Shown here: positions 9,390-51,392 of the stretch, piece by piece
Position numbering within the stretch: the first letter of the stretch is position 1
How the letters are laid out: each line of letters begins with the position of its first letter
Virus record (IMG/VR): IMGVR_UViG_3300031853_000006
Location: 52,897-116,896 of that record
DNA: 64,000 nt
Direction: 5' to 3' (one strand)
DNA from: a virus
Lineage: Duplodnaviria; Caudoviricetes
The notes under the pieces: model-generated
What the model was told of the DNA's origin: nothing
Databases searched by the model: none
Seen by the model: only the letters and a program-made list of their open reading frames with translations
Translations under genes and position numbers: made by a program

Positions 9390-9426
9390 GAAACTAGACT
9401 AATTTTGTTTTCATTATAAAAAAGTC

Positions 9427-9455
9427 TTGACAAATTCATATATTTATCATATAAT
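9427..9455 (+). promoter_or_regulatory. conserved sigmaA-type early promoter repeat
   Basis: AAAGTCTTGACAAATTCATA...ATCATATAAT; TTGACA-17-TATAAT. Confidence 0.85.
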
Positions 9456-9502
9456 ATAATTGTATCGATCATTAAACACTTTATCAGGTAGGAGGCGTAA
9501 TC

Positions 9503-10066
9503 ATGAAAGTATTCAGAGAGATGGAAACAGATACAAATACCTTCAAAATAGGAGACAGGATCGAAGTACAGTTCGGGAATGAATCTCACTACGCAACAGC
9601 CATCCAGCAAAGAGGCTATGAAATGCTCTTTCTAACCGATGATTACCTCGACGATGCAATGCCTATGAATCCAACACCCTTGACTGAGGGAGGATGGGCA
9701 GAGAGTGAACTCAGGAAAAGACTGCAGAGTGTAGCAGAAACCGTCGACATCAAAGATCAGCTAGTGCCCTTTGAAAACGGGGACCTTTTGACTCTCTTAA
9801 GTATTCAAGAGATGTTCGGACTTGACAAGAGCTTCAATGAATGCGAAGGGCAGATTGAGTGGCTGAAAGATCGCAGACACAGAATCACAGAAAGAAAGGG
9901 CGATCCTTACGAATGGGGATGGCTGCGCTCAGTCGTATCCGCGTCGAGTTTCGCGATTGTCGACAGTGACGGCTGTGCGGACCGTGGGGGTGCGTCCTAC
10001 GCTCATGGCGTCTGCCCAGCTTTCCTGATCAAGAATACTATCACAGAAAGCGAGGTAGAGGAATGA
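9503..10066 (+). CDS. DUF6273-like (CLec-fold) protein, candidate DGR target
   Basis: 'GW..SELR..L' and C-terminal 'WGWLRS....F..V...G......A....GVCPAF'. Confidence 0.7.
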   Translation: MKVFREMETDTNTFKIGDRIEVQFGNESHYATAIQQRGYEMLFLTDDYLDDAMPMNPTPLTEGGWAESELRKRLQSVAETVDIKDQLVPFENGDLLTLLSIQEMFGLDKSFNECEGQIEWLKDRRHRITERKGDPYEWGWLRSVVSASSFAIVDSDGCADRGGASYAHGVCPAFLIKNTITESEVEE

Positions 10067-10611
10067 AGAACTCAATGGAGGTATTAAGAGAGATCGAGAC
10101 AAAAACAGATCGTTTGCAGGTCGGGGATAGAATAAAAGTTAGCTTTTCAGGAGAAGAGCACTATGCAACGGCTATTCAGCAAAGAGGCGATGTGATGCTC
10201 TTTCTGACTGACGACTACCTCGATGACGCTATGCAGATGAACCCTACAGACACGACTGAGAGAGGATGGGCAGGGAGTGAGCTCAGAAAAAGACTGCAGG
10301 ATATAGCGGACAACACAGATATAAATGATCAGCTGATACCCTTCGAGAACGGAGATCTTCTGACTCTTCTGAGCATCCGGGAGATGTTTGGACTCGATGA
10401 AAATTTTGATGAGTGTGACGGTCAGATTGAATGGCTAAAGGATCGCAGACACAGGATCGCATTAAGAAAAGGAGAATCCAACGAATGGGGGTGGCTTCGC
10501 TCCGTCATGTCGGCGACGCATTTCGCTAATGTCTACAACAATGGGTTAGTGAACTACTACTACGCGGGGAGTGCTATTGGCGTCCGTCCAGCTTTCCTGC
10601 TTAAGTTATAG
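10063..10611 (+). CDS. DUF6273-like (CLec-fold) protein, tandem paralog, candidate DGR target
   Basis: Highly similar to 9503 except in the C-terminal WLRS...GVRPAF segment. Confidence 0.7.
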   Translation: MKNSMEVLREIETKTDRLQVGDRIKVSFSGEEHYATAIQQRGDVMLFLTDDYLDDAMQMNPTDTTERGWAGSELRKRLQDIADNTDINDQLIPFENGDLLTLLSIREMFGLDENFDECDGQIEWLKDRRHRIALRKGESNEWGWLRSVMSATHFANVYNNGLVNYYYAGSAIGVRPAFLLKL

Positions 10612-11050: not shown

Positions 11051-11764
11051 TTATCGATAAAGCACGCCTGAATAATTAGGAGTGCTGATATTTGTTACGC
11101 CGTCCATTCGGTCTGCTATCCACATATTGGAATTCAAGTCTGTTATCACATCACTACATTGCCATTGAGGATAAGCTCCGTATATCTGTGACCCTGTTGT
11201 GATGCCTATACGGTAAGTGCTTACTTTGAATGATGATCCTGGATTATCATGATTGTATATCTTAGTACTGGAGCTCGTCTGATTTGCAAGCAATGTAAGG
11301 CTTGACGAGCTATTGAAAGTTGCCCAATCTACAAAACTAAGAGGAACCTCAGTCTTACTAGCAGTGCTTAACTCTCCCGTCAAGTAAAGTGATCCTGTAA
11401 TGGGACGTATTACTGACACATAGCTTGTATAATCAGTGTTGTAATTACAACCAAACTGCACAGAATCAGCATCTTCTATGAATCTGTATGCTACGTCCCG
11501 ATCGGGTGAGAGAGATATGCAGGTCTGCCCATACCAAATCATCGAAGTATGCAGATCTAATGGTTGGTAAGCAGATGAGGCGATCGTCACTGAAGGTGTT
11601 ATCGACGTATTAAAGTGTATGATAAGTAGGTCACCCTTATGCAAGTTTGTGAGCGTACAACTAGCCCCTCCTGGCCTAATTATCGCTGACGCAATCGGGA
11701 GCGCAAGCGTTATTATTCCGCCCCCTCCTGAAGAGCTATCTTGGTTTGAAATAATTGTACTCAT
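11051..11764 (-). CDS. MS[TCS]xx...GGG family, S/T/Y-rich adhesin-like protein
   Basis: MSTIIS...GGGG N-terminus; AAGGAGG RBS; GTCGACCTT motif upstream. Confidence 0.7.
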   Translation of the reverse strand: MSTIISNQDSSSGGGGIITLALPIASAIIRPGGASCTLTNLHKGDLLIIHFNTSITPSVTIASSAYQPLDLHTSMIWYGQTCISLSPDRDVAYRFIEDADSVQFGCNYNTDYTSYVSVIRPITGSLYLTGELSTASKTEVPLSFVDWATFNSSSSLTLLANQTSSSTKIYNHDNPGSSFKVSTYRIGITTGSQIYGAYPQWQCSDVITDLNSNMWIADRMDGVTNISTPNYSGVLYR

Positions 11765-11823
11765 AATATATTTGTTTCCTCCTTTACTTGAAAAATAAAT
11801 AAAGTGTTTCTCCTACTTGACAC

Positions 11824-11845
11824 TATTTAAGGTCGACCTTAAATA
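11824..11845. promoter_or_regulatory. 22-bp perfect palindrome; two back-to-back ACCTTnnATA motifs
   Basis: TATTTAAGGTCGACCTTAAATA centred between divergent paralogs. Confidence 0.75.
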
Positions 11846-11897
11846 CTTTTAAGTAGGAAAACACTATACTTTTTCTTTGTAAGGAGGAACATATATT

Positions 11898-12641
11898 ATG
11901 AGTACAATAGTTGAATCAATCGGCGGCGGATCTGCGTTGGACATACTAGACGAAAATGTAACTGTAACTCAACTCTGGTCGTCTACCGATCAACGATGGC
12001 AGGAAATATCGGCATACATGCAAGACGATGGCTTATATGTATATACTAACATAGGTAATGCGACCTATCCACAATTCACTGTGAGGATAATGTTACTGAA
12101 GAAGGAAGCAAAGATATACCCAGTTATCATTCAAGGGTGTGCAGGCTCTAGCGACTATTATGCTCAATTTGTTGCGGAATCGCTTGACTCATTCCATGTG
12201 TATCCTTCCGGTAACGGTGCAACAGCTAGGCTATACAAGTTAGCTGATTCTAAATTATCATCTCATATCGAGTATAAAGGGTTATTGAGTGCGAACAACT
12301 ATAACATATACATACCTAAATCATATGGAAGCGGGATGTATATTGTTGTGGGGTTCAATAAAGATGCAACAAAAAGTTATATAGGGGCCTCGTCGGTGTC
12401 ATTAACTGGATTATGCGTGTCCATTCCTTCCGATGATTATCTGATGTGGTTGCCCGTTTCGCATGTTGTCACATCAGCTGCTATTCAATCTTACTCACCT
12501 TATGGGTACAGCGCGATAGCGAGCTATAACGGAGGTCATGGCGAACTTTATAACGGAAGTTTCTTCGATCGTCTGACCACTTATTATAACAACAGTAATC
12601 CAGGTAAGGCAAATACAGCATTGCTATATAAGATAGTATAA
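11898..12641 (+). CDS. MS[TCS]xx...GGG family, S/T/Y-rich adhesin-like protein
   Basis: MSTIVESIGGG N-terminus; AAGGAGG RBS. Confidence 0.7.
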   Translation: MSTIVESIGGGSALDILDENVTVTQLWSSTDQRWQEISAYMQDDGLYVYTNIGNATYPQFTVRIMLLKKEAKIYPVIIQGCAGSSDYYAQFVAESLDSFHVYPSGNGATARLYKLADSKLSSHIEYKGLLSANNYNIYIPKSYGSGMYIVVGFNKDATKSYIGASSVSLTGLCVSIPSDDYLMWLPVSHVVTSAAIQSYSPYGYSAIASYNGGHGELYNGSFFDRLTTYYNNSNPGKANTALLYKIV

Positions 12642-13806: not shown

Positions 13807-14904
13807 ATGATTAAAGTAGAAAACATTGATGTATGGGGGTTCGAACATGCTATAAGAGGAATGCGGAACCCAATGAATTCATGGGACAAAAGTGATAGTG
13901 GGGTAGGGTGCTCCTCTGCAGACGGCAACACGTCATTCTGCTTGCATTGCACAGAGAACTCAGAATGTGTTGCCGGATTTCACAACTACTGTGTAGGCGA
14001 AGCTGATCTCGGTTTGATGCAAAGGCTATTCAGAGCGAGCAAGGATGGTAACAACGCTCACAGAAAGTACCTTAGGCAAATCTTTGTGTCGATGGATATC
14101 ACGGCTCCGCTATACTGGTGGAAGGAGTTTGACACATACAAAGTAGGCACAGTTTCCAATTCGTGTTCGACCATGCACAAGATCCATGCAAATAAATTCA
14201 CTCCAGATGATTTCAGCATTGAGCATCTAGATGCGATTCCGAGAATCCGCATGCTTGACTTAATTGATACACTCAATAATTGTCGAGAGACTTATCTCAA
14301 GTCTAAGGATAAGCACGACTGGTGGCAAATGATACAGCTTCTGCCCTCGTCCTACAATCAAAGACGCACCCTCACGTTTGATTATGAAAATGTATACGCA
14401 ATGATACAGCAGCGAGAGGGTCACAAGTTAGACGAATGGCGAGAGTTCGTCAAAGTGCTCAGAGACCTGCCGTATGTCAAGGAAATAGCAGGTTGGGCTA
14501 CTAGCAAATCCAAAGAAACTTGCTCAGAATCCGAAGAAACTCGTACTGAATCCAAAGAAGTCCTGATGTATGTGGGTACTTTTGAATATGATCACTCTGA
14601 GGGCATCACTAATATTAAAAAGGTGCCGGTGTCGAAATCTGATATTGAACCCGACGTAATTTCGATTACTTCGATTAAAGCGGAATTCGACACTGAAGTC
14701 CCTGGCATAGCTGGGCAGTGCAGCGTAAGGTATGACGGAGAAGCAGGAAAGATATTAGTCATTTATCCTGTGGGATTTCCGCTGAGCCTCAGAAATACTA
14801 TCGCACGTGAATTCGAATTGGACAAAGACTGCACAGTATTCCTATCAGGATTGCGCTACGCCACTAGCCCATTCATTGAACATTTTGGAGGTAAGTTCGA
14901 TTAA
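13807..14904 (+). CDS. conserved phage protein (ThyX-fold-like) with C-terminal extension
   Basis: 'AIRGMRNPMNSW', 'HRKYLRQI', 'APLYWWKEFDTYKVGT..NSCSTMHK', 'HKLDEW'. Confidence 0.6.
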   Translation: MIKVENIDVWGFEHAIRGMRNPMNSWDKSDSGVGCSSADGNTSFCLHCTENSECVAGFHNYCVGEADLGLMQRLFRASKDGNNAHRKYLRQIFVSMDITAPLYWWKEFDTYKVGTVSNSCSTMHKIHANKFTPDDFSIEHLDAIPRIRMLDLIDTLNNCRETYLKSKDKHDWWQMIQLLPSSYNQRRTLTFDYENVYAMIQQREGHKLDEWREFVKVLRDLPYVKEIAGWATSKSKETCSESEETRTESKEVLMYVGTFEYDHSEGITNIKKVPVSKSDIEPDVISITSIKAEFDTEVPGIAGQCSVRYDGEAGKILVIYPVGFPLSLRNTIAREFELDKDCTVFLSGLRYATSPFIEHFGGKFD

Positions 14905-14914
14905 AAAAAAAGTC

Positions 14915-14943
14915 TTGACAAATTCATATAAATATCATATAAT
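14915..14943 (+). promoter_or_regulatory. conserved sigmaA-type early promoter repeat
   Basis: TTGACA-17-TATAAT with the conserved spacer. Confidence 0.85.
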
Positions 14944-14989
14944 ATACTTGTACCGCTTAAATTCTTCCGTTATGAAAGGAGAGATTAAA

Positions 14990-28765: not shown

Positions 28766-29016
28766 TAACTTCATATTATAATAAGTAAGCAGACTAAAAT
28801 ATTATATCACATGTTGAAGAACCGCAGCTAATTGCAGCGAGATTCAACACGGATCGGGGATCAGTACACGTGGCTGATTCCCGATTTTTGTTGTAATTTT
28901 GTGAGATTTTTAGTAATTTTTAGAAAATCTTAAAAATATTTTTGTTCAGCGTCTTCCATGATCAGGCTATTCTATTAGAAAATTCGAAAGTTTACTAAAA
29001 ATATTATAAAAAAGTC

Positions 29017-29045
29017 TTGACAAATTCTAAGAAATATCATATAAT
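29017..29045 (+). promoter_or_regulatory. conserved sigmaA-type early promoter repeat
   Basis: TTGACA-17-TATAAT. Confidence 0.85.
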
Positions 29046-29125
29046 ATACTTGTAAGATAATCAAGTAGTAAATTCAAGTACTACAACAGACCCTATTCTA
29101 TCATATACCAAAGGAGGTATTCGTT

Positions 29126-30451
29126 ATGAAAAACAAACTTTTCAAAAAAGCGGTAGCGGTAGCAGCCGCAGCAGCAATGATTTTAGCATCAGCACCTGCA
29201 GTAGATTCAAAAGCAGCAGTAGCAATAACAGACAGCTACCCAATCACATCAGGAATTGATTCACTCAGCACAACAAGTTACTCATGCAAAGCAGCTAACA
29301 ACGTATCTTACGCAGGCAGCGCAGAAAACGTCATCAAGATTCACTTGAAAGAGCACAACGACTTAACCAGCACCGGAAAGCACGTAGAAGCTTTTACAGT
29401 ATTCACCGACGATCCATCTTGGATCAGCATCGTAGCCGTAGACAGCGGAGTAGATTGCAGCACTGCTCACATAGTAGACGATCAAAATTATCCGAATAGC
29501 CGATACACATCCGGTAGGAACATAACCGTCAGCAATCATCGTGCAGAGGAAGATGCATTCGGCAGGATCACATACGAAGGAGGAGCTTACGTCTACTTGG
29601 TAGCAAATAGTTACGCAGGGGGAGATGAAACAGATAGACGAGTTGGAGTAACTATCGTATCTAAAGCCAAGAGAGGTTCAACCGCATTTGAAGATTTGAC
29701 AAATATCACAATCGACATTGATGCAAAAGATCCTGAGCCAGAGCCAGCGCCGGAAGTTGAGCCAGAGCCTGAGACGGATCCCGAGTCTGAAGTTCTTAGA
29801 GGACCTGCTCCTGCACCGTCAGAAGCACCTGTAGCTGACAAGCAGGAAGACGAAAATGCTAAAGAGCCTGAAGCATCTAAAGAGCCAGAAGCATCTAAAG
29901 CACCTGAAGCATCTAAAGCACCTGAAAAGACTCCTGAGCCAGACGACAAGGACAAGGTAGAGGAAGAGAACGATGATCTCGAAGACACCGACAGCGCTGT
30001 CACATACGACGTAGGAGACGAAATAGAATCTCCGACAGCTATCTACACCGTAACAGCTGCAGACGACGGCAACTACGAATTAGAGTACTCAGATGTAGAC
30101 GATGAAGACTCAGAGGTGATCAACATTCCTAAGGTAGTTAAGTCAGACGGATTAACTTTCAAAGTAACATCCATCGGAGACGGGGCTTTCAAAGGTAACA
30201 CAACAGTAAAAGAAATAACAATCGGATCAAACATCGCTGAAATCGGAGATAAAGCCTTCTGGGGCTGCAAAGGTCTTCGAGTACTCAAGATAGTCAGCAC
30301 TAAACTTAAGCTGTCAAATATCGGCAGCCAGGCCTTCAAGAAGCTGAGCAGCAAGCTAGTAATCAAAGTACCTAAGTCAAAGATCAAATCATACAAAAAG
30401 ATCTTCCAGAAGAAAGGCCTCAGCAAGAAGGTTAAATTCAAAGCTATCTGA
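29126..30451 (+). CDS. secreted/surface protein with Pro/Glu linker and BspA-type leucine-rich repeats
   Basis: Sec signal peptide MKNKLFKKAVAVAAAAAMILASAPA; 'IPKVV....FKVTSIGDGAFKG...ITIGSNIAEIGDKAFWGC'. Confidence 0.8.
   Translation: MKNKLFKKAVAVAAAAAMILASAPAVDSKAAVAITDSYPITSGIDSLSTTSYSCKAANNVSYAGSAENVIKIHLKEHNDLTSTGKHVEAFTVFTDDPSWISIVAVDSGVDCSTAHIVDDQNYPNSRYTSGRNITVSNHRAEEDAFGRITYEGGAYVYLVANSYAGGDETDRRVGVTIVSKAKRGSTAFEDLTNITIDIDAKDPEPEPAPEVEPEPETDPESEVLRGPAPAPSEAPVADKQEDENAKEPEASKEPEASKAPEASKAPEKTPEPDDKDKVEEENDDLEDTDSAVTYDVGDEIESPTAIYTVTAADDGNYELEYSDVDDEDSEVINIPKVVKSDGLTFKVTSIGDGAFKGNTTVKEITIGSNIAEIGDKAFWGCKGLRVLKIVSTKLKLSNIGSQAFKKLSSKLVIKVPKSKIKSYKKIFQKKGLSKKVKFKAI
29861..29928 (+). repeat. 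18-bp in-frame tandem repeat (K[EA]PEAS)
   Basis: AAAG(AG/CA)CC(T/A)GAAGCATCT, about 3.7 copies. Confidence 0.85.
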
Positions 30452-30607: not shown

Positions 30608-31006
30608 ATGAAAAGGGTCATATACGCAACTGCAACATACAGCACAAACAGCGAAGTCAAGGACTGTGCGAAATATGTACGCGACCTTATCAAGCAAACT
30701 AAAACTCCATTTACAGTGACGCTGGTAGATCCGTATTCGGACAAGAAGATGAATCAGAGAGTTAAACTCAATGCGCAAGTTTCGCAAAAGGGCAAGAATA
30801 ACTACTTCGTGAACGTCGAATACAATATGATGATCGACGAAGCCGATGAGGAAGAAAGCAATGACTTTCTGAATAACACAATAGATGACGTCATTGATGC
30901 AGCAATCGACAAGTATCCGATGCTTTCTATCGGTAGCAAGACAATATCCATCGGCGGATATCGTGGTCGAGTAGTTACTGGAATAACTGTCCGATCAGAG
31001 GGGTGA
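30608..31006 (+). CDS. MKRxIxA-tagged hypothetical protein
   Basis: MKRVIYATA; ACCTTCAATA motif at 30555. Confidence 0.7.
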   Translation: MKRVIYATATYSTNSEVKDCAKYVRDLIKQTKTPFTVTLVDPYSDKKMNQRVKLNAQVSQKGKNNYFVNVEYNMMIDEADEEESNDFLNNTIDDVIDAAIDKYPMLSIGSKTISIGGYRGRVVTGITVRSEG

Positions 31007-31012
31007 AACATA

Positions 31013-31216
31013 ATGAAAAGATGGATCCATGCAAAATCCACGATAATAGACGCAGCGTCAAACATAGGGACCTATAGGGGCGTGTCTTATGGAATGGAAG
31101 ATTCAGGCGATCAGCTTTATTACTTTGTAAAACGCAACGGTGAAGTAGAGTACGCTGAACTAGAAGACGAACTCTTCACACTAATAGATGAATACATCGA
31201 AAGGGGATACAAATGA
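31013..31216 (+). CDS. MKRxIxA-tagged small protein
   Basis: MKRWIHAKS...IIDAAS. Confidence 0.65.
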   Translation: MKRWIHAKSTIIDAASNIGTYRGVSYGMEDSGDQLYYFVKRNGEVEYAELEDELFTLIDEYIERGYK

Positions 31217-31554
31217 AACGATACATCCACTCATCACACGACTCAGAGAAAACATTCAAATACGAGATCTGGCAGATCAGTCACACACGTGAAGTTGATT
31301 ACGCATTCATGAGATGGAGTTATGCAGAGGATAATGGTTTCGACTTTGATGATTACAGCTTCGTTTACGAAGGAGAAATCGAAGAGAGCTCGGTAGAATG
31401 GGCATTGGAGAAACTTTTCACGAAGTTCAATTTACATCATCCGGCAGACTTCAGAGGTCATTCACTTAGTGTCAGCGATATAATCAAGCTAGACAACAAG
31501 TTCTACTACTGTGATTCCTTCGGGTTTGAAGATATCACAGATGTAATCCGATAA
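31213..31554 (+). CDS. YodL-like domain protein with MKRxIxSS tag
   Basis: 'YEIWQI', 'VYEG', 'LEKLFTKFN..HPADFRGHSLSVSDII', 'YYCDSFGF' YodL signature. Confidence 0.85.
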   Translation: MKRYIHSSHDSEKTFKYEIWQISHTREVDYAFMRWSYAEDNGFDFDDYSFVYEGEIEESSVEWALEKLFTKFNLHHPADFRGHSLSVSDIIKLDNKFYYCDSFGFEDITDVIR

Positions 31555-31667
31555 ACTAATAAGCTCACGTAGCTACATTAGTTATAGAAGAATCGAGTGC
31601 TGACCGAAGCGCCAGTGCTCTTTTTCTATGAAACCTAGAAGGGGAAATTAAGGGGAGGTCAAGCGAC

Positions 31668-32084
31668 ATGAACATATCAATACTTACTTGCAATGTTCAA
31701 CCCAGGATGCTCAGCGACACCGACGTAATGATTGAGAGTGCTACGATCATTATTGTAGTGTTTGTCGTTTTAGCAGTTATTGTCAACGCTCGCCTTGCTG
31801 TATCCAGAGATAGAGTTATTTATTTTGACACCTGGCTCTCAATAATCTGGGCCAAAGTAGCTGCGATGCATCTGAAGTATAACAATACCTCTCGAGTTAC
31901 CGCAGAACTTGAAGAAGCCAAATGCAAAACTTGGTTCTACTTAAATAGATCACAGATCAAACAACAGCTGACTGACGAAGGCGTATTAGAAGACGGTTGG
32001 GGAGTTAAGTCAGTGATCATTGAAGCAGTTTACAACATGTATTGCGAAGCAAGAGATTCAGCTGATGAAGAAATCGTTAAATAG
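31668..32084 (+). CDS. hypothetical membrane protein
   Basis: ORF with GGAGG RBS and one TM segment. Confidence 0.55.
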   Translation: MNISILTCNVQPRMLSDTDVMIESATIIIVVFVVLAVIVNARLAVSRDRVIYFDTWLSIIWAKVAAMHLKYNNTSRVTAELEEAKCKTWFYLNRSQIKQQLTDEGVLEDGWGVKSVIIEAVYNMYCEARDSADEEIVK

Positions 32085-32147
32085 AGTGTAGGCATCTAGT
32101 TCTTGTATAATTGCTGCAAGAACTAAGCATTGCAAAGGAGTACACTC

Positions 32148-32420
32148 ATGAACAAGGCTGAACGAATAATTGAACGAGCTGTAAGCAGCACATTTGCAAG
32201 ATTTCACAAGATCTCAAATGACGAACTCAGAAAAACATTCTGTTACAGCGATCTTTTCTTTCTGATTGAAAGGATGTTACGTGAAACCGCACAACTAGTT
32301 CTTACAGAGGACTACACTCCAGAAGAGCTTGCCAATGCTATCGCAGAGTACAGATGGGATCTCGTTTCATATCCGAGCGAGGTCAAATCGGACAACCGAT
32401 GGGCAAGTCTTTTGCAATGA
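32148..32420 (+). CDS. hypothetical protein
   Basis: ATG after AAAGGAG. Confidence 0.6.
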   Translation: MNKAERIIERAVSSTFARFHKISNDELRKTFCYSDLFFLIERMLRETAQLVLTEDYTPEELANAIAEYRWDLVSYPSEVKSDNRWASLLQ

Positions 32421-32436
32421 GGTGAAACTTAGAAAG

Positions 32437-32757
32437 ATGGAAACAAATCAGATAACACTGCAAGAAGAGCTTACACAGCTACTAGCTGATCCGGCTATTC
32501 AGCATGCGTTCAACGAAGCTTCTAAACGCGCACAGCAGCAGAACTTAGTAAGCCCAAAGGCAGAAGGTCGAGTATTAACACAGCCTGAAGCAGATCTAGT
32601 CATCTCAACAGTAGAACAAGTTCTGCAGAATGTGGAAATAATCAGATACACCGAACCAGAATTACGCAAAGCTTACATGGAAGGCTACCAAGAAGCGTGT
32701 AAGAATATAACAGAGATGATCAAGATCTCTGAAGCCGCAGAGGAAAGCAAATACTAA
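32437..32757 (+). CDS. hypothetical protein
   Basis: ATG after GAGGTG. Confidence 0.6.
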   Translation: METNQITLQEELTQLLADPAIQHAFNEASKRAQQQNLVSPKAEGRVLTQPEADLVISTVEQVLQNVEIIRYTEPELRKAYMEGYQEACKNITEMIKISEAAEESKY

Positions 32758-32779
32758 CAGAGAGGAGCCCTAACCTACA

Positions 32780-33055
32780 ATGAAAAGACCATTTGAAGCA
32801 TTTAGTTATATCGGACCATTCCAGAATGACGACGGAATGTGGACTGCAGAAGCACTCGGCAAGCTCGGAGTACATGTAGACATCGATACAGAAGCAGATT
32901 CTGTAAAAGATATCTGCACGGTTCTCAAGAAAGAAAAAATCATTCCATCCGCAGATATGCGGAGAGTCAACGCCACTATTGGCACCGACATAATCGAAGT
33001 ACACGAGAAAAAGGGCATGAAGCCGCTTTGTAGACTAGTAATCAAGCGCATCTGA
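32780..33055 (+). CDS. hypothetical protein
   Basis: ORF with GAGGAG RBS. Confidence 0.65.
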   Translation: MKRPFEAFSYIGPFQNDDGMWTAEALGKLGVHVDIDTEADSVKDICTVLKKEKIIPSADMRRVNATIGTDIIEVHEKKGMKPLCRLVIKRI

Positions 33056-33071
33056 AATAAAGGAGAACACT

Positions 33072-33320
33072 ATGCGAGCTTTTGTCAAAAGCCCTAAGCA
33101 GACTGAAAGATGTATTGTCGATAATTTCGGCATCCGCGAAAGCGATCGAGCAATCATGATGCCGGTCTACAGAGACGACGGGGCATATATAAGAGATATC
33201 TGGGTTCCGAAATCATTGATTGTTTCCAGAAGGCCTCATGGCGTAGGCTGCACAGCTTTTGAGATTAAGTCATGGTTCTTGCAGAAAGAATTAGAACCTG
33301 ACCAGACAATCGGAGAGTAA
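33072..33320 (+). CDS. hypothetical protein
   Basis: ORF with AAGGAG RBS; 'IWVPKS' motif. Confidence 0.65.
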   Translation: MRAFVKSPKQTERCIVDNFGIRESDRAIMMPVYRDDGAYIRDIWVPKSLIVSRRPHGVGCTAFEIKSWFLQKELEPDQTIGE

Positions 33321-33359
33321 TTCTAAAACATTTTCAATACACATTCACATTACAAAAAT

Positions 33360-33412
33360 GCAGAAAAAGGCCACTTGCTGATCAATACGATCGGCTTGTA
33401 GGCCTTTTCTGC
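33360..33412. terminator. bidirectional terminator-like stem
   Basis: GCAGAAAAAGGCC...GGCCTTTTCTGC between convergent genes. Confidence 0.6.
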
Positions 33413-33444
33413 AACTTATGAGTACAATTGTTAGTTAAGTAGGC

Positions 33445-33885
33445 TTATCTGGCGTAAATAGTTCCATTCCGAGCAAACTGCCAATGTGTGCAATAGTATC
33501 TGTATTGGCTTCCTTCCTGTTCGAGGTAACCCCTGACCATCATGATCCAAGCAGTAGGCCCTCCGTTATAATATGAAGTATATTGAAGATAACACGTGAG
33601 TGTGGTTTGTAGACTAGCTAGGAACTCATCTACTGCTGATTTAGTAGCTATTCCACTGCATCCAAAATAAATATCATTTGTTTCAGGTAGCTTCTGTTGC
33701 AGCATCCACTCGTTATACGAATCATATCCTAATTGCTGTTTTATAGCAGCGGTTACAACGCTTGTATATTCGTCCCAGCTACTTGCACTGTGCGATTCAT
33801 TTGGAAGAGGATTGCTCACAGTTACTGGTAACATTGTCCATTCTCTACTACCTGATCCGCCACATCCGTTCACATATGTTGACAT
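33445..33885 (-). CDS. MS[TCS]xx...GGG family adhesin-like protein
   Basis: Start MSTYVNGCGGSG at 33885 after GGAGG; GTCGACCTT upstream (about 33957-33949). Confidence 0.7.
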   Translation of the reverse strand: MSTYVNGCGGSGSREWTMLPVTVSNPLPNESHSASSWDEYTSVVTAAIKQQLGYDSYNEWMLQQKLPETNDIYFGCSGIATKSAVDEFLASLQTTLTCYLQYTSYYNGGPTAWIMMVRGYLEQEGSQYRYYCTHWQFARNGTIYAR

Positions 33886-33984
33886 ATTTTCTATGTACCT
33901 CCATTTTCGATAAATAATCACGTCATTACAACGTGTCGTCGAAAATATAAGGTCGACAGGTGTGCGCGGAGAATCTAATATTAA

Positions 33985-34701
33985 CTATCTATGTTTAGTC
34001 ATATATCCAAAAGTTGTATTCATAGAAACTGAAGTACATGGTTTTACGCCGCTACCTTTTTGTATGCAGAATCCAGCTAATATCTGATATGGATATAGCT
34101 TGAAAAAATAATCAGCGTAATATTCAATTATCAATTGATAAGGTAATTGAAAATCCTTGTCAGAATAAGAAGTTCCCGCAAACTTGTAAGTTAATTCTGT
34201 GTTTCCTGTCCAGCCTGCACTTGCACTTCGATGATCTATGAAGTTAGCACCTTGATTAAATTCTTGAGGTGGCAATTCAACTAAGGTAGTAAGGGCAGAT
34301 TGCTGTATGCCTTGTGAACATGAATAGTAAGTATCCGCTTGGATTCTCTTATACACTGTAAATACAGGATAAACAACACTACCCGTTAATTTCATAGTTA
34401 GCGGGACAGGAGCACCGCTTGCTTTAGACACACGGTACGCATAGTGATACGAATAGGTAGCATTCGGTTGAAACATTGCGTTTCCGACCTTAATGTATCC
34501 GTCGTTACCTAACTCTTCTACTACTACGCTGCCTGTGCTGTCCTGGAACGTTATTGGATATCCAGATAATATCAGATCTCCTTCTTGCCAGTTTGCAGTT
34601 ACGGATTCATTAAAGCCGGTTAAGTAACCAATGAATGCACACGCAAGCCCCATCTTTGGTACAGAACTCGGCGTCAGCTGACTACTCACATAACAACTCA
34701 T
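33985..34701 (-). CDS. MS[TCS]xx family adhesin-like protein
   Basis: MSCYVSSQL; AAGGAGG; GTCGACCTT upstream. Confidence 0.7.
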   Translation of the reverse strand: MSCYVSSQLTPSSVPKMGLACAFIGYLTGFNESVTANWQEGDLILSGYPITFQDSTGSVVVEELGNDGYIKVGNAMFQPNATYSYHYAYRVSKASGAPVPLTMKLTGSVVYPVFTVYKRIQADTYYSCSQGIQQSALTTLVELPPQEFNQGANFIDHRSASAGWTGNTELTYKFAGTSYSDKDFQLPYQLIIEYYADYFFKLYPYQILAGFCIQKGSGVKPCTSVSMNTTFGYMTKHR

Positions 34702-34872
34702 ATTTCTATATAACCTCCTTAAAAAGAAATTTCAACTTCATGACAAGAAAAATATAAGGTCGACACCATTTTCTCAGTCGAAACAAGGCTTCGCATACAC
34801 TCGACCTTTAATATGTCCGTCACACGAAACACATGAGAAAAGCTTTTTAATATAAAGGAGGAAAAAGAATAA

Positions 34873-35550
34873 ATGAGTTGTTATGTCAGCAGTCAGCTTA
34901 GCCCAAGTTTAGGCGGAGCATCCGGTAATTGGGAATATAAGTTCATCGGAGGAGTACAGTCAGGTCAAACAGGTTATGCAGAGTTACCTAATTTGAAAGT
35001 AGGGGATGTAATAGCATTTGGACCCAGTAACACCTCATATTTAAGCAATACTACTGTGCAAATGCAGAATGCAAGTTACAAAATAGTAGGGAATGTGCTT
35101 AGTGGAGGAGTAGGGGTGTATTCAAGAGCATCTATAGATGGTAGCCCTTCATTTTATATAACTTCTATATCAGGTACACCTACTATATCTATATCTAGTA
35201 ATTCAGGTTATCGATACATGTGCGTTATTAGCCAATCTAGTACTAAGCATACCGTGTTAAAAACAAACATCTCAGATAATCAGAATATTGGATTAGTATA
35301 TCAACCGGAGTTAGCTTCGGCTGACTACGCATACTGGACATTTGATAGTTCTGGTTCAAGTACTTTCTACTTGAATTTTTCTAATCAAAATGAGGTATCT
35401 TTCGAACATTATATCTCGCAGTCAGTATATGGATATAGGTCATATCCAGGAACATTGATACAAGATTATGCAGTTAATCTATCCAATATGTCACTTGCTA
35501 CTCAACTTAACACTTCTACTAATTATGTCAAAAAATACATAAGCATTTAA
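34873..35550 (+). CDS. MS[TCS]xx...GG family adhesin-like protein
   Basis: MSCYVSSQLSPSLGG; TCGACCTTTAATA at 34801. Confidence 0.7.
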   Translation: MSCYVSSQLSPSLGGASGNWEYKFIGGVQSGQTGYAELPNLKVGDVIAFGPSNTSYLSNTTVQMQNASYKIVGNVLSGGVGVYSRASIDGSPSFYITSISGTPTISISSNSGYRYMCVISQSSTKHTVLKTNISDNQNIGLVYQPELASADYAYWTFDSSGSSTFYLNFSNQNEVSFEHYISQSVYGYRSYPGTLIQDYAVNLSNMSLATQLNTSTNYVKKYISI

Positions 35551-35662
35551 GTAGTCCGACGCCATCGCAACCCCTCGACCTTTAATACTACACAACAGTA
35601 CGAAACACATTTGAAGTGTTTCGCATACAACTAATTGAGTATTAAAGGAGGTACATTAACTT

Positions 35663-36160
35663 ATGAGTAGTTATGTTGGATCAACAGGTACGAGTGGAGG
35701 CGGAGAGTTAAAAGACCCTCTCATGATATATCAGAAAACATCAGGCACCACCGAAAACGTGTATATTAGCTTTAGCGATACTCAAAGTTATATTCAGCAG
35801 GGATACACCTACATGTTTTTTGCGTTAAACGGAGAGTATAAATCAGGGGACACATATCGAGGCGGAGGGTTAGTAGGTAATTCGTTTTTGCCTTTACAAA
35901 TCATAGTAAAATTGTACGAGTTGCAGCGGCAAGATGCTGGAGGGAGCGGAGGTAACGGGTATTACTTCTGGGAGCGGTTATCTGAGTCTTCAACAACTAT
36001 GACGGCTCATCCATTCGGCGTATACTACTGTTATAACGCATCGAACACTGCATATGCGTATCCGAACTACATTAGCGGTAGCGGGCAGTTAGAAGTGGCA
36101 GTTCGGCGTAGCAGTACAGATAATGGCCGATATGTGTCACCCACAATTTATGTTATGTAA
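35663..36160 (+). CDS. MS[TCS]xx...GGG family adhesin-like protein
   Basis: MSSYVGSTGTSGGG; TCGACCTTTAATA at about 35575. Confidence 0.7.
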   Translation: MSSYVGSTGTSGGGELKDPLMIYQKTSGTTENVYISFSDTQSYIQQGYTYMFFALNGEYKSGDTYRGGGLVGNSFLPLQIIVKLYELQRQDAGGSGGNGYYFWERLSESSTTMTAHPFGVYYCYNASNTAYAYPNYISGSGQLEVAVRRSSTDNGRYVSPTIYVM

Positions 36161-36321
36161 TTAGTGTCGCAAGTACATTATCACATAATTGTACTCATAA
36201 TAAAAGAAAAAGCTCCTTTCTTCTTGGGAGCTTTTTCTATGTATTGTTATAGGAAATCTTTTAAGCCCTTACCTGCAAGCACTGAGGGCTTATTTTTTTT
36301 TGAATAATTTTAAGAAAAGTC

Positions 36322-36350
36322 TTGACTTTTTCATATAGATATCATATAAT
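36322..36350 (+). promoter_or_regulatory. conserved sigmaA-type early promoter repeat
   Basis: TTGACT-17-TATAAT. Confidence 0.8.
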
Positions 36351-36398
36351 ATACTTGTACCAGATAACATAGTACCTACACCGAAGGAGGTAACACTT

Positions 36399-36560
36399 AT
36401 GGAAAGAAGATACTTAGTAACAACTCAGGTACCCGAAACAGAAAGCACTTACACAAACTACATCGAGGCACATAGCGCTCAGGAAGCTGTAGATAAGGTT
36501 AGAGTATTTGATCCAGCTCCTGTCATCGAAGTATCAGTCATCGTTAAGGATTGGAAATGA
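36399..36560 (+). CDS. 53-aa hypothetical protein
   Basis: AAGGAGG RBS; MERRYLVTTQ...IEAHSAQEAV; not in ORF track. Confidence 0.6.
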   Translation: MERRYLVTTQVPETESTYTNYIEAHSAQEAVDKVRVFDPAPVIEVSVIVKDWK

Positions 36561-36590
36561 TACAAAGGACTTGAAAGGAGTGTAACGCAT

Positions 36591-37364
36591 ATGACGATAG
36601 AGACCTTAGAGAAGAGAATAGCCGGAAAAGAAAAAGCAATAGCTACGTTGGAGAAAAAGATACAGCGAATAGAAGCAGCTAAAGCAACTAATTGGGAAAA
36701 GAACCCATACTATTATGATGAGCAAGATCTTAAATGGGCTAAAGAAGAACTCGCATCTGAGATGAATGTTTTAGTTAAGTATCGGGAGCAGCTTAAACAG
36801 GAGCAGGAAAAAGTAGCAAGCAGAAATGTAGAAGCTCTTGTAACATTCTTAGAGACCTGGAAGGAGGATTGCATTAGTTACTTTTTAGAGGAGCATCAAA
36901 AGTACCTAGAGGCTCGCAAAGAATACTACGCAGCTGGTAAGCAGTTTTGCGAAAGATTTAATTCACGCAGGGCATTAGGGCTTACAACAGATGAGATCAA
37001 CAAGCTTGAAGCAGACTACAAAAAGTTGAGAGAAACGTTTAAGCAGAGATGGAGACACGTAATACAATTTGATCAGGGAAGCCTCTCTTGGGAAGAAACC
37101 ATGAGGAAACATCTTGAGATAGAGAAAAATCGCAAGTACGATGATATTATCAAGAGGACTAACAAGGTTGTCGGAAAGATAGCAGACGCCTCAGGCCTAC
37201 ACGTAGGTGCAAAAGGAGACCTCAACGGCATTATAATCGGCACAGAAGGGAAGGCTAAAGTAGAAACAATTGGCGCCGGAGGGTACAACGAAGACGTAAT
37301 TCTTGAAAGCGGACGTCACGGTCAGTGTTATCATTTCAGGACACTTATTCACGAGATCAACTAA
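36591..37364 (+). CDS. conserved coiled-coil phage protein
   Basis: C-terminal 'LNGIIIG..G.AKVETIGAGGYN...QCYHFRTL'. Confidence 0.7.
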   Translation: MTIETLEKRIAGKEKAIATLEKKIQRIEAAKATNWEKNPYYYDEQDLKWAKEELASEMNVLVKYREQLKQEQEKVASRNVEALVTFLETWKEDCISYFLEEHQKYLEARKEYYAAGKQFCERFNSRRALGLTTDEINKLEADYKKLRETFKQRWRHVIQFDQGSLSWEETMRKHLEIEKNRKYDDIIKRTNKVVGKIADASGLHVGAKGDLNGIIIGTEGKAKVETIGAGGYNEDVILESGRHGQCYHFRTLIHEIN

Positions 37365-38122: not shown

Positions 38123-38797
38123 GTGTATTTAATGAATGTTGTGATAACAGGATCGTCTGAAGGAATGGGACACGCAACTGCTGCTAAGTTTGTCAATGAA
38201 GGTCACTCAGTGATCGGCATAGACATCATGCCTTGTCCTCCTGACTTAAAAGATTGCCCCTTATATAAGCATTGTAGAGCAAACATTGCAGATCCTAACG
38301 AGCTGCCCGATATTCCTAATGTAAACATATTGATAAACAATGCCGGAGTTACCGGTACGGGAATGGATATTGATACAAATCTGAAAGGTCTCATGGAAGT
38401 TACTCGTAAGTATGCACTTGACAATCCGGCAATCAAGTCAGTCCTTAATCAAGCAGCAGCATCGGCACATATGGGAACAGAGTACGATGAGTATGTTGCA
38501 TCCAAAGGCGGAGTTATCGCTTATACTAAATGGGTTGCTAAAGAGATTGCAAAATATGGCGCAACTTGTAACAGCTTGTCATTCGGAGGAGTATTGTCAG
38601 CTGCTAACAGGCCCGTTATAGAGAACGATGATTTGTGGCAGCAGATCATGGACTTAACACCGCTCAAGAAATGGACAACTACTGAAGAAGCAGCCGAATG
38701 GATCTATTTTATGACCGTGATTAACAAATCCTGTTCAGGTACCGACATAATAATAGACAACTTGGAAAGCTTGAACGGAGTGTTTGTCTGGGAGTGA
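38123..38797 (+). CDS. short-chain dehydrogenase/reductase (SDR)
   Basis: ITGSSEGMG Rossmann motif, NNAG, YVASK catalytic motif. Confidence 0.9.
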   Translation: MYLMNVVITGSSEGMGHATAAKFVNEGHSVIGIDIMPCPPDLKDCPLYKHCRANIADPNELPDIPNVNILINNAGVTGTGMDIDTNLKGLMEVTRKYALDNPAIKSVLNQAAASAHMGTEYDEYVASKGGVIAYTKWVAKEIAKYGATCNSLSFGGVLSAANRPVIENDDLWQQIMDLTPLKKWTTTEEAAEWIYFMTVINKSCSGTDIIIDNLESLNGVFVWE

Positions 38798-42140: not shown

Positions 42141-42196
42141 GGTAAGAATGTAAACTCGCTCCTATCGCTATGTTATCTAATCTTTCAAAAAAAGTC

Positions 42197-42225
42197 TTGA
42201 CAAACTCATATAAATATCATATAAT
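42197..42225 (+). promoter_or_regulatory. conserved sigmaA-type early promoter repeat
   Basis: TTGACA-17-TATAAT. Confidence 0.85.
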
Positions 42226-42292
42226 ATAAGTGAACCTACTCCTAAATCGTTAAGTATTTTGCTACCTAACAAAGATTGGAGGACAATAACAG

Positions 42293-45087: not shown

Positions 45088-45221
45088 CAACAAAAGTAAA
45101 GTTATAATTCAGTTAAAGGCGAATTAACTTCTCTGACTGCAGCATGAAATAGCCTCTAAACGGCGACCTTTAATATCGGCATCATATTCACCATAACAAG
45201 ATAAACAGGAGGCGAAGAACG

Positions 45222-45481
45222 ATGTCGACAATGGTTACTTTGAGGCGAGTATAGAATATAGAGACAGCCCCTATCTAAATATGCGCAACACTTATGCGAG
45301 CAATTCCAACTGGAGTAGTCAGAATTTTACAAGTTTCAAATTAGGTACAGCTTTTACGCCTAGCGGATCTGAGTTAATATCTCGAATGACTGTAACAACT
45401 CCGTCAAATCTATATCGCACAACTTCCTTAGTTATTAACGTCGGCATTGATCAAGAGCTTATCCTAGCGATTGTGGGATAA
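45222..45481 (+). pseudogene. frameshifted short member of the MS[TCS]xx family
   Basis: GCGACCTTTAATA motif, AGGAGG, ATG 45222 MSTMVT; stop at 45252, but the -1 frame continues (EASIEYRDSPYLNMRNTY...) to 45481. Confidence 0.5.
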
Positions 45482-46212: not shown

Positions 46213-46277
46213 CCACTGAATGTTGCAGGTAATGCGGAGGTTCTATGCCTCCGCTTATTTTTTTTTTTTGAAAAGTC

Positions 46278-46470
46278 TTGACAAATTCATAGAAATATCA
46301 TATAATATACTTACACGCTACATTAAACCTATTATATCATTGCTAGAGGAAGTTACAAATACGTAAATCGTTATATTAAAGCGTAATCCGCCGTCTATTT
46401 CGTATTTGTAATTCTGTTTTCCTCTAGCAAGAAAAACACGATTCCAAACAATAGGCGGCGTTTTATATTT
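46278..46470 (+). promoter_or_regulatory. sigmaA promoter plus structured leader RNA with internal ATCGTTA motif
   Basis: TTGACA(46278)-17-TATAAT(46301); stems 46340-46351/46419-46430, 46352-46363/46401-46412, 46389-46399/46450-46460; TTTTATATTT before RBS. Confidence 0.7.
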
Positions 46471-47480: not shown

Positions 47481-47918
47481 ATGAAGCGATACGTCAAAGC
47501 ATCTTTAACATCTGGGCTAATCGGCATCTGGTGGGTCTACAACGATACTGTAATTGCAGATTACAAAACACTGGATGACGGATACAACGATGGAAACTTC
47601 ATTAACTATGACGAAAAGAAAAACCATGCAACGGAGTGGAATAAGCTAATCAAGGAGTACTTTCCCGAACAGGCAGAAGAGATCATTGCATTTGGTTATA
47701 AAGGAATAGAAAGAGGTCGAGTAATCTACAATCTCAGAACACAAGCTTACGAAGTAACGTGCAGTCAAGAAGTTTACAAGGACTCGAAACAGCGTAAGCT
47801 TATTGTTGATGCGTTCGAACTCAACGATTGCAGATATGACTTCTTCGTTCTGAGGCACTATTATGTAGCGAAGCTCACCGGAAATCCTGCACTTGATCAG
47901 TTTGAATATGGTATATAG
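47481..47918 (+). CDS. MKRxVxAS-tagged hypothetical protein
   Basis: 'GIWW...H...W...Y...ERGRVIY...I..AF.L'. Confidence 0.7.
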   Translation: MKRYVKASLTSGLIGIWWVYNDTVIADYKTLDDGYNDGNFINYDEKKNHATEWNKLIKEYFPEQAEEIIAFGYKGIERGRVIYNLRTQAYEVTCSQEVYKDSKQRKLIVDAFELNDCRYDFFVLRHYYVAKLTGNPALDQFEYGI

Positions 47919-47936
47919 AAACTTTTTGAAAAAGTC

Positions 47937-47965
47937 TTGACAAACTCATATAAATATCATATAAT
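47937..47965 (+). promoter_or_regulatory. conserved sigmaA-type early promoter repeat
   Basis: TTGACA-17-TATAAT. Confidence 0.85.
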
Positions 47966-48012
47966 ATACTTGTAGGAATAAAACATATCAATTTAGATAG
48001 GAGGTCCTGCTT

Positions 48013-50411: not shown

Positions 50412-50464
50412 TGGACACATTCTCCTTCGGCAAAAAAAAAAATTGAAAAAATTATAAAAAAGTC

Positions 50465-50493
50465 TTGACTTTTTCATAGAATTGTCATATAAT
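50465..50493 (+). promoter_or_regulatory. conserved sigmaA-type early promoter repeat
   Basis: TTGACT-17-TATAAT. Confidence 0.8.
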
Positions 50494-50531
50494 ATACTTG
50501 TAAGCCAATAACATCGAAAATCCAATAGGAG

Positions 50532-51091: not shown

Positions 51092-51392
51092 ATAACTGTA
51101 CAGGCTAAAGATCAGATTAACAATCGCAAATAAGTTAAGTTTGGGTTACAAACTCCTTTCATGAGGCGGGCAGGGTGCATCCTTGCCCGTCTTTAATGGT
51201 TTGATAACGATTGTATATCTATATGAAATATTAAGAAAGTATTAAAAGATTTTAAGAAATTATTAAAAAACAGTTGACTTTTTCGTAAAAATATCTTAAA
51301 ATATAAATGTAACTTGATAATAGGAACCAGGTAGGAGCAGGAAGTTTCTAGAAATAAGTTCTTATTATCTCAACTTGCCCGAAAGGAGTTTT

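Follow-up and report, generated by a model that had tools for sequence, protein, structure and literature searches.

A short element in the 3'UTR of a late-type gene of a bovine gut phage, lying directly in front of the terminator, reads on its opposite strand as the beginning of a gene. Judged by their sequences, this element (S4) and a second one (S3), located in the 3'UTR of another gene of the same cluster, are antisense copies of a translation-initiation region, from about -4 to +19, that belongs to a small family of late genes, designated here A to F. The underlying repeat is real, non-random and more structured than the initial annotation of this DNA described. The window analyzed, a stretch of 64,000 nucleotides, comprises bases 52897-116896 of a 116.9-kb IMG/VR virus record with a completeness estimate of 78% and a G+C content, from base composition, of 42%. 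The phage is uncultured, and its provenance from the bovine gut is given by the run metadata.

Gene family A to F and the four copies of the 18-mer

Two promoter families are present in the record. The first, revealed by repeat analysis (D1-D5), is of the strong sigma-70-type and early: at least nine near-identical copies consist of AAAGTCTTGAC-N17-TATAAT and a conserved ATACTTGTA (9405-9464, 14893-14952, 28995-29054, 36300-36359, 42175-42234, 46256-46315, 47915-47974, 50443-50502, and 51252-51311), and a search with the exact pattern found no matches elsewhere among viral contigs. An early-gene region contains a short-chain dehydrogenase/reductase gene (38123-38797; adh_short, E 5e-13 to 6e-17), and an 18-nt tandem repeat with at least four copies, encoding a Pro/Glu/Ala/Ser/Lys-rich linker, occupies positions 29859-29944. 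The second motif, ACCTT(W)(W)AT, is late-type and probably represents a late promoter element of the phage. It is located 20-85 nt 5' of an SD-plus-ATG in the lysis cassette (13733(-)), in large upstream genes and in the family genes A to F, further examples being 11836(+), 34804(+), 35578(+), and 45166(+). The large genes preceded by this motif lie in the upstream part of the record, the home of the tail-fibre loci.

Six genes share a TCG-extended form of the late motif, TCGACCTT(W)(W)AT, located 55-85 nt upstream of the ATG, and this extended form precedes no other intact gene in the record. All six have a strong SD at a spacing of 10-13 nt and an N-terminus in which MS[TCS][IY][VI] precedes a Gly/Ser-rich stretch, and a seventh member is decayed. 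The family comprises the following genes:

Gene A, 11051-11764, minus strand: 237 aa, MSTIISNQDSSSGGGG..., ORFan; late motif at 11836(-)
Gene B, 11898-12641, plus strand: 247 aa, MSTIVESIGGGS..., with one relative (84% identity) that starts MSTLLEAS; late motif at 11833(+)
Gene C, 33445-33885, minus strand: 146 aa, MSTYVNGCGGSGS..., its start at 33885 set by the SD and the family N-peptide; late motif at 33956(-)
Gene D, 33985-34701, minus strand: 238 aa, MSCYVSSQLTPSS...; late motif at 34763(-)
Gene E, 34873-35550, plus strand: 225 aa, MSCYVSSQLSPSL..., ORFan; late motif at 34801(+)
Gene F, 35663-36160, plus strand: 165 aa, MSSYVGSTGTSGGG..., ORFan, with S4 in its 3'UTR; late-type promoter motif TCGACCTTTAAT at 35575-35586(+)
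Decayed seventh member, 45163-45254, plus strand: GCGACCTTTAAT motif (GCG variant), SD, and ATG TCG ACA ATG GTT...

In the decayed member (ATG at 45222) the promoter motif and SD are intact, and the ORF ends after 10 codons (MSTMVTLRRV*); a 66-aa ORF in another frame follows (region 45163-45481). Genes C, D, E, and F form a cluster, C<-D<- and ->E->F, which constitutes a late-gene island between two early operons with terminators at both edges. Stable hairpins early in the 5'UTRs of F (35599-35625) and C (33919-33935), just 3' of the promoter motif, are possibly 5'-end protective stem-loops.

The family members had been called adhesin-like paralogs in the initial annotation. The promoter motif and N-peptide are common to the six genes, but the gene bodies have no detectable mutual homology: beyond about 8 residues the A to F proteins showed no detectable relatedness, except weakly for D/E (z 2.8) and A/B (z 2.1), and none was detected between F and A. 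Nothing from Pfam, PHROGs or the ESM Atlas, where single-sequence models of the family ORFans reach a pLDDT of 0.40-0.48, supports an adhesin-like character, and A, E, and F have no relatives in libraries of 5.8 and 1.8 billion proteins. Paralogy is thus only weakly supported. The feature shared among A to F is, at the level of sequence, an expression module rather than a fold.

The pairs A/B and D/E are arranged as head-to-head quasi-palindromes (repeat analysis I1, I4, and I5), the A/B intergenic region (11751-11911) being a quasi-palindrome of 160 bp. The palindrome at the A/B centre, AAGGTCGACCTT (11829-11840), is made up of two late promoter motifs overlapping on opposite strands, which suggests that the TCGA palindrome within the promoter itself gave rise to A/B by a fold-back inverted duplication. 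Immediately 5' of this locus are two tandem paralogous genes (9503-10066 and 10063-10611) with a common 300-nt repeat of 77% identity, the second of which matches DUF6273.

The repeat first noticed was the 18-mer ATAATTGTACTCATAATA, which at 36185-36202(+) is indeed identical to 11751-11768(+), with the distance of 24 kb and the strands as reported. Allowing up to three mismatches, it has four copies in the window:

S1, 11751-11768, copy on the plus strand, gene on the minus strand: real translation start region of A (-4..+14), to which S4 is perfectly complementary; minus-strand reading, TATT-ATG AGT ACA ATT AT
S2, 11894-11911, copy on the minus strand with 2 mismatches, gene on the plus strand: real translation start region of B
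S3, 33414-33431, minus strand, 3 mismatches: antisense stub in the C 3'UTR
S4, 36185-36202, plus strand: antisense stub in the F 3'UTR, derived from the 5' end of a family gene

These four copies compare with 0.09 expected, and none of 100 shuffles reached four. For the 14-nt core AATTGTACTCATAA, S1 to S4 are the only copies in the whole 116.9-kb record. Base composition predicts 1.9e-5 copies of the 18-mer and 0.0027 copies of the 14-mer core in the record, and 2.6e-6 copies of the 14-mer in the 3'UTR spacers that separate stop and terminator in the remaining five family genes. Out of 174 candidate gene starts, the start region of A alone has a second exact copy. A chance repeat of an AT-rich 18-mer would be consistent with the recurrence of AT-rich start contexts. 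Matches of 15/18 are common in the genome, and the 16-mer TATTATGAGTACAATT starts unrelated MSTI... genes in many viral contigs, where a scan gave more than 117 single matches, all of them unrelated MSTI... gene starts and read as chance. However, the expected counts for the exact 18-mer in the record and for a second 14-mer in an equivalent spacer, together with the shuffles, are so far below the observed copies that chance is excluded for all practical purposes.

Antisense gene starts at two terminators and their possible DNA-level origin

S4 is located between the F gene and its terminator, as reported in the initial annotation, 24 nt 3' of the F stop (36158-36160) and 2 nt 5' of the hairpin. 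Read on the minus strand, it gives TATT-ATG AGT ACA ATT ATG TGA (MSTIM*), a frameshifted MSTYV-type start, from which the removal of two bases yields an MSTYV start as in C. Its upstream TATT is that of A and B, and its 18 nt are all identical to A. The terminator stem contains an SD-like AAAGGAG, located 13 nt 5' of the stub ATG (minus strand), at a spacing typical of the family. S3 is located 13 nt 3' of the C stop and 0-1 nt 5' of the terminator hairpin, and reads on the plus strand AACTT-ATG AGT ACA ATT GTT AGT TAA (MSTIVS*), combining the upstream context of F with the codons of B. Promoter motif and gene body are absent from both elements. Going by these readings, S3 and S4 derive from the 5' end of a family gene.

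Together, the two stubs form a perfect 14-bp inverted repeat (19/23 overall; 33416-33438 and 36178-36200) that brackets 2.75 kb. In a comparison of the two cluster arms this match (14/14 or 19/23) ranks second, after the D/E starts, and the terminators, 5'UTRs, and C and F bodies have no mutual similarity. The common core of S3 and S4 is the part shared between the A and B starts. The structures next to the stubs are the following:

T1, 36205-36238, plus strand: terminator with a 13-bp stem and U-run, 2 nt after S4, bidirectional in shape
T2, 36262-36298, plus strand: hairpin and U9, 5' of the next early promoter (36322-36350)
C-arm terminator, 33359-33413, minus strand: hairpin immediately after S3, then a U-run

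The intervals from stop to stub contain no terminator-like hairpin, a strong hairpin with a U-run follows right after both S4 and S3, and the F 3'UTR is 44 nt long. No terminators were found between D and C or between E and F. Because C and F are the outermost genes, every transcript leaving the cluster would end with an anti-start followed by a terminator. A local hairpin at 36172-36195, half-burying S4, was no more stable than its shuffles (z -1.2), and Rfam covariance models gave no matches at E<=1 on either strand of 33000-36600. A RegA-like protein operator at the stub was ruled out, since the 3'UTR bears the antisense and not the sense strand, and a promoter inside the stub was ruled out by an impossible hexamer spacing.

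A recombination scar from cassette shuffling had been offered as the alternative to antisense regulation, and this proposal is partly borne out by the finding that both elements are, on the opposite strand, stubs of a family 5' gene end. In its developed form, S3 and S4 would be neutral relics, family 5' ends left over from the recombination and inverted duplication through which the cassette family was built and is still reshuffled, and their complementarity to the gene starts would be an automatic by-product. The agreement of both stubs with family starts extends to the 4-5 nt 5' of the ATG and, in S4, to the SD-like AAAGGAG at the family-typical 13-nt spacing. The family itself is in flux, as evidenced by the A/B and D/E quasi-palindromes and the decayed member at 45222, and unrelated bodies stand behind a common 5' module.

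Possible strain variation may point in the same direction. A low-depth contig of a relative in run X2 omits E by joining 34783, upstream of D, to 35577 via a chimeric F-type promoter copy; from 35608, in the F 5'UTR, it continues at 36271, without F, S4, and T1. This is to be read with caution, as the sides of the junctions are only 30-31 nt at a likeness threshold of 80%. If this contig is real, it hints at two cassettes that vary between strains, E and the unit F+S4+T1, whose junctions would lie within or close to the promoter modules. One X2 contig spans the S4 region (36035-36334) at about 86% identity, and contigs of relatives leave 33340-33573 and most of E uncovered.

Relatives were also sought in several collections. 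F, D, and the relative of B (P0003) have no relatives in viral contigs; neither F and D in metagenome contigs nor B and D in genome contigs gave any match. The family promoter-SD-ATGAGT pattern has no matches in viral contigs, no family gene or motif occurs at 80 endolysin-bearing loci, and a blastn search of GenBank phages returned no match. The neighbouring 257-aa protein has relatives in viral contigs, namely phages at 47-60% identity, which lack the family and the promoter motif.

Shuffling of this kind has a precedent in the PeSLs of T4-type phages, repeated promoter and stem-loop units before ORFans, where recombination between the units inserts, deletes or swaps the ORFans among closely related strains (PMC2839356, PMC4122927). 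PeSLs are sigma-70-type early promoters with a stem-loop, in direct orientation and extending to the SD/ATG, and antisense 3'UTR stubs are unreported for them (PMC2839356, PMC4122927). Like them, the module TCGACCTT(W)(W)AT is a regulatory unit repeated before all six ORFans; unlike them, it is a late-type motif combined with a common N-peptide. By analogy, PeSL-mediated modular shuffling is the closest concept for the origin of the stubs, and its occurrence in T4-type phages favours a relic (PMC2839356). However, a relic would be expected to keep homology on at least one flank, and neither S3 nor S4 is related to any family gene on either side, with promoter and body wholly gone. Trimming to the same ~23 nt twice, at mirror terminator sites, would call for a single ancient origin or for two events that happened to coincide. 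In the former case, 14/14 positions would have been kept while all neighbouring non-coding DNA was randomized. Ordinary homologous gene conversion needs more than 14-18 nt to maintain such a likeness between copies. We regard neutral relics as a serious possibility, only slightly less likely than a function of the stubs in RNA.

The perfect 14-bp inverted repeat (19/23) around the 2.75-kb segment could also be a DNA recombination site, the core being the crossover for a site-specific recombinase whose gene would lie outside the sequenced portion of the genome. The invertible segment would then be either the four-gene cluster, between S3 and S4, or the F body (F start to S4), and S1 and S2, inverted repeats around the 125-bp A/B promoter region, would be further sites; upon a flip of the F body, the SD-like sequence by S4 would serve F. 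In the invertible segments of Mu (Gin/G), P1 (Cin/C), Salmonella (Hin) and the R64 shufflon, repeats lie between a fixed promoter or constant part and variable parts, and the recombinase gene is adjacent. The cluster resembles them in that short inverted repeats bracket a kb-scale segment with oppositely oriented genes. It differs in that the genes point outward with their own promoters, no recombinase was found in the record, and no expression switch would result. Serine (PF00239) and tyrosine (PF00589) recombinases were not found in the 116.9-kb record, 78% complete, in searches whose positive controls worked. Inversion of the cluster would change nothing obvious, since C, D, E, and F each have their own promoter motif and SD and terminators stand at both ends, and recombination between these stubs and S1/S2 would invert or delete 21-24 kb with structural genes. 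Finally, the contig from the source run is colinear over 31000-36322, and no joints at S1 to S4 are listed in Logan contigs of four runs, contigs being a form of data that hides rare isomers. A recombination site is, on balance, improbable.

The same 14-bp perfect inverted repeat, at the edges of a terminator-bounded late-gene island between two early operons, could be taken for the terminal inverted repeats of a non-autonomous transposon or MITE-like element comprising C to F. This is very improbable: there is no target-site duplication, the outer flanks (TCTGCAAC versus TAAAAGAA) differ, no transposase was noticed, the same motif is the working, outward-facing start of A and B, and only four copies exist in the record.

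Predicted pairing of the 3'UTRs with start regions

As described in the initial annotation, S4 in the plus-strand transcript is a perfect 18-nt complement of the A start region (-4 to +14) and a 15-nt complement of the B start region. Its partial match to the start of F itself, also mentioned there, is a 9-nt complement, which extends to 16 bp with a 2-nt bulge, and the longest perfect complement in D is 8 nt. The corresponding lengths for S3 are 14 nt (A), 13 nt (B), and 11 nt (F). Net cofold energies (kcal/mol) were calculated for the 3'UTR with its terminator against the target 5' region, with internal structure paid for:

F 3'UTR (S4): A -19.8; B -17.2; F -12.8 (inside its shuffle range)
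Shuffled-stub controls of the F 3'UTR: mean about -5 (-7 versus F); minimum about -11 (-13 versus F)
C 3'UTR (S3): A -17.9; B -18.8; F -18.6
Shuffled-stub controls of the C 3'UTR: mean -7.5 to -10; minimum -12 to -14

By predicted net energy, A and B stand out as targets of both stubs and F as a target of S3; C, D, and E are at background level. By plain duplex energy against 174 starts, S4 ranks A and B second and third (z about -3), and S3 ranks F, B, A, and D second to fifth. As predictions, these ranks of the family starts are good, not overwhelming.

In the predicted fold of the 647-nt F mRNA, positions 36183-36200 pair with the F start (35661-35676) through 9 bp, a 2-nt bulge and 7 bp (P ~0.85). 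S4 and the F start share 13.2 expected bp versus a mean of 1.7 in 25 shuffled-stub controls, one of which reached 12.4. The strongest predicted partner of S4 is thus the start codon of F itself, in cis, which was overlooked in the first reading. In the C mRNA, S3 has 0.44 expected bp with the start of C and is predicted to be 66% unpaired, which would leave it free for trans pairing. According to these models, S4 looks mainly like a cis element, possibly acting also on A/B, and S3 like a free trans element.

The trans-acting 3'UTR antisense proposed in the initial annotation is supported by its geometry, namely the location of S4 5' of the sole intrinsic terminator, the complement to -4..+14 of A/B and the second copy in the C 3'UTR, and by predicted binding energies beyond those of shuffled stubs; the occurrence of pairing in vivo and the direction of its effect, repression or stabilization, are what we infer. 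S3 and S4 may therefore be a functional 3'UTR anti-start element, acting in cis on F and in trans on A, B, and F, a reading to which we give serious but tentative credence. Under this functional reading, transcription of the F and C 3'UTRs would continue as far as the terminator, and within the complete F mRNA S4 would fold back onto the F start codon in a 5'-3' contact of the icaR type. In trans, the A and B mRNAs would be bound at their start regions by both stubs, and the F mRNA at its start by S3. The duplex would occlude the ribosome-binding window and/or make an RNase III substrate, and the outcome would be a tuning of the relative output of co-transcribed late genes. Because all six genes carry the same late-type motif, regulator and targets would be made together.

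The functional reading is favoured by the presence of two copies in mirror 3'UTR places, antisense and abutting a terminator, for which 2.6e-6 are expected. Constraint on the stubs would fit the likeness of S3 and S4 next to terminators, 5'UTRs, and C and F bodies that share nothing, and the coincidence of the S3/S4 core with the part common to the A and B starts also speaks for function. It is weakened by several observations. The 18/18 identity between S4 and A resembles the product of a recent copying of DNA more closely than a seed shaped by evolution. For C the cis model breaks down, since S3 has no match to the start of this gene. One of the 25 shuffled controls reached nearly the value of S4 itself, and A and B are not first in plain duplex energy. 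Codons 4-5 of the target vary between strains, as the only known relative of B begins MSTLLEAS. An RNA model has no use for the SD-like AAAGGAG by S4, which hints at a vestigial or DNA-level origin. Moreover, late mRNAs are translated while being made, and a 3'UTR acts only once the transcript is complete, which counts against regulation from this place.

A broader version is a post-transcriptional hierarchy of phage late ORFans wired by domesticated gene-start stubs. In such a hierarchy, the C and D-C transcripts would mask the F start in trans, the F and E-F transcripts would mask it in cis, and A and B, 24 kb away, would be masked by both sets of transcripts as well. Such an mRNA-mRNA network would have been born by inverted duplication of the 5' ends of its targets, an origin like that of some plant miRNA genes. 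The hierarchy is given somewhat less credence than the functional reading itself.

Among known systems, the closest mechanisms are two from Bacillota. A 3'UTR acting in cis is represented by icaR of Staphylococcus aureus, whose 390-nt 3'UTR contains a 7-nt anti-SD motif; by pairing with the ribosome-binding region on its own mRNA, this motif blocks initiation and creates an RNase III substrate, an effect that is proven (PMC3868564). Like this motif, S4 in the F 3'UTR is predicted to pair with the start of its own gene. Unlike in icaR, the predicted partner is the start codon with the first codons instead of the SD, the 3'UTR is 44 nt long, and the element is a gene-start copy. Trans mRNA-mRNA pairing is known from Listeria, where the hly 3'UTR pairs with the 5'UTR of prsA2, a functionally linked mRNA, and stabilizes this target against RNase J1 (PMC8722363). 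For the stubs, too, the predicted partners are the 3'UTR of one complete mRNA and the 5' region of a second, in what is likewise a Bacillota-type system, but the targets belong to the same promoter/N-peptide family and any effect may be repression or stabilization. Phage antisense RNAs offer another parallel. The sar RNA of P22 is a cis-encoded overlapping antisense against ant, and c4 of P1/P7 is a processed small RNA against the icd-ant leader, with its targets downstream on the same transcript. Both are phage-encoded and control the translation of a phage gene, and the stubs resemble them in being phage RNA complementary to a ribosome-binding region; they differ in that an unprocessed 3'UTR segment would act on genes 24 kb away.

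Implications for phage late genes

To our knowledge, bacterial regulatory 3'UTRs are limited to a handful of cases, with no example from phage late genes known to us. Should the stubs act as proposed under the functional reading, they would represent a compact and easily engineered form of mRNA-mRNA regulation, based on 3'UTR copies of the target start, and would show one route by which such regulators are born, the inverted duplication of a gene 5' end. If they are inert, the stubs would mark the breakpoints at which an expression module, consisting of a late promoter, an SD and five codons, was attached to unrelated ORFan bodies, and would thus bear on the creation and exchange of phage accessory genes.
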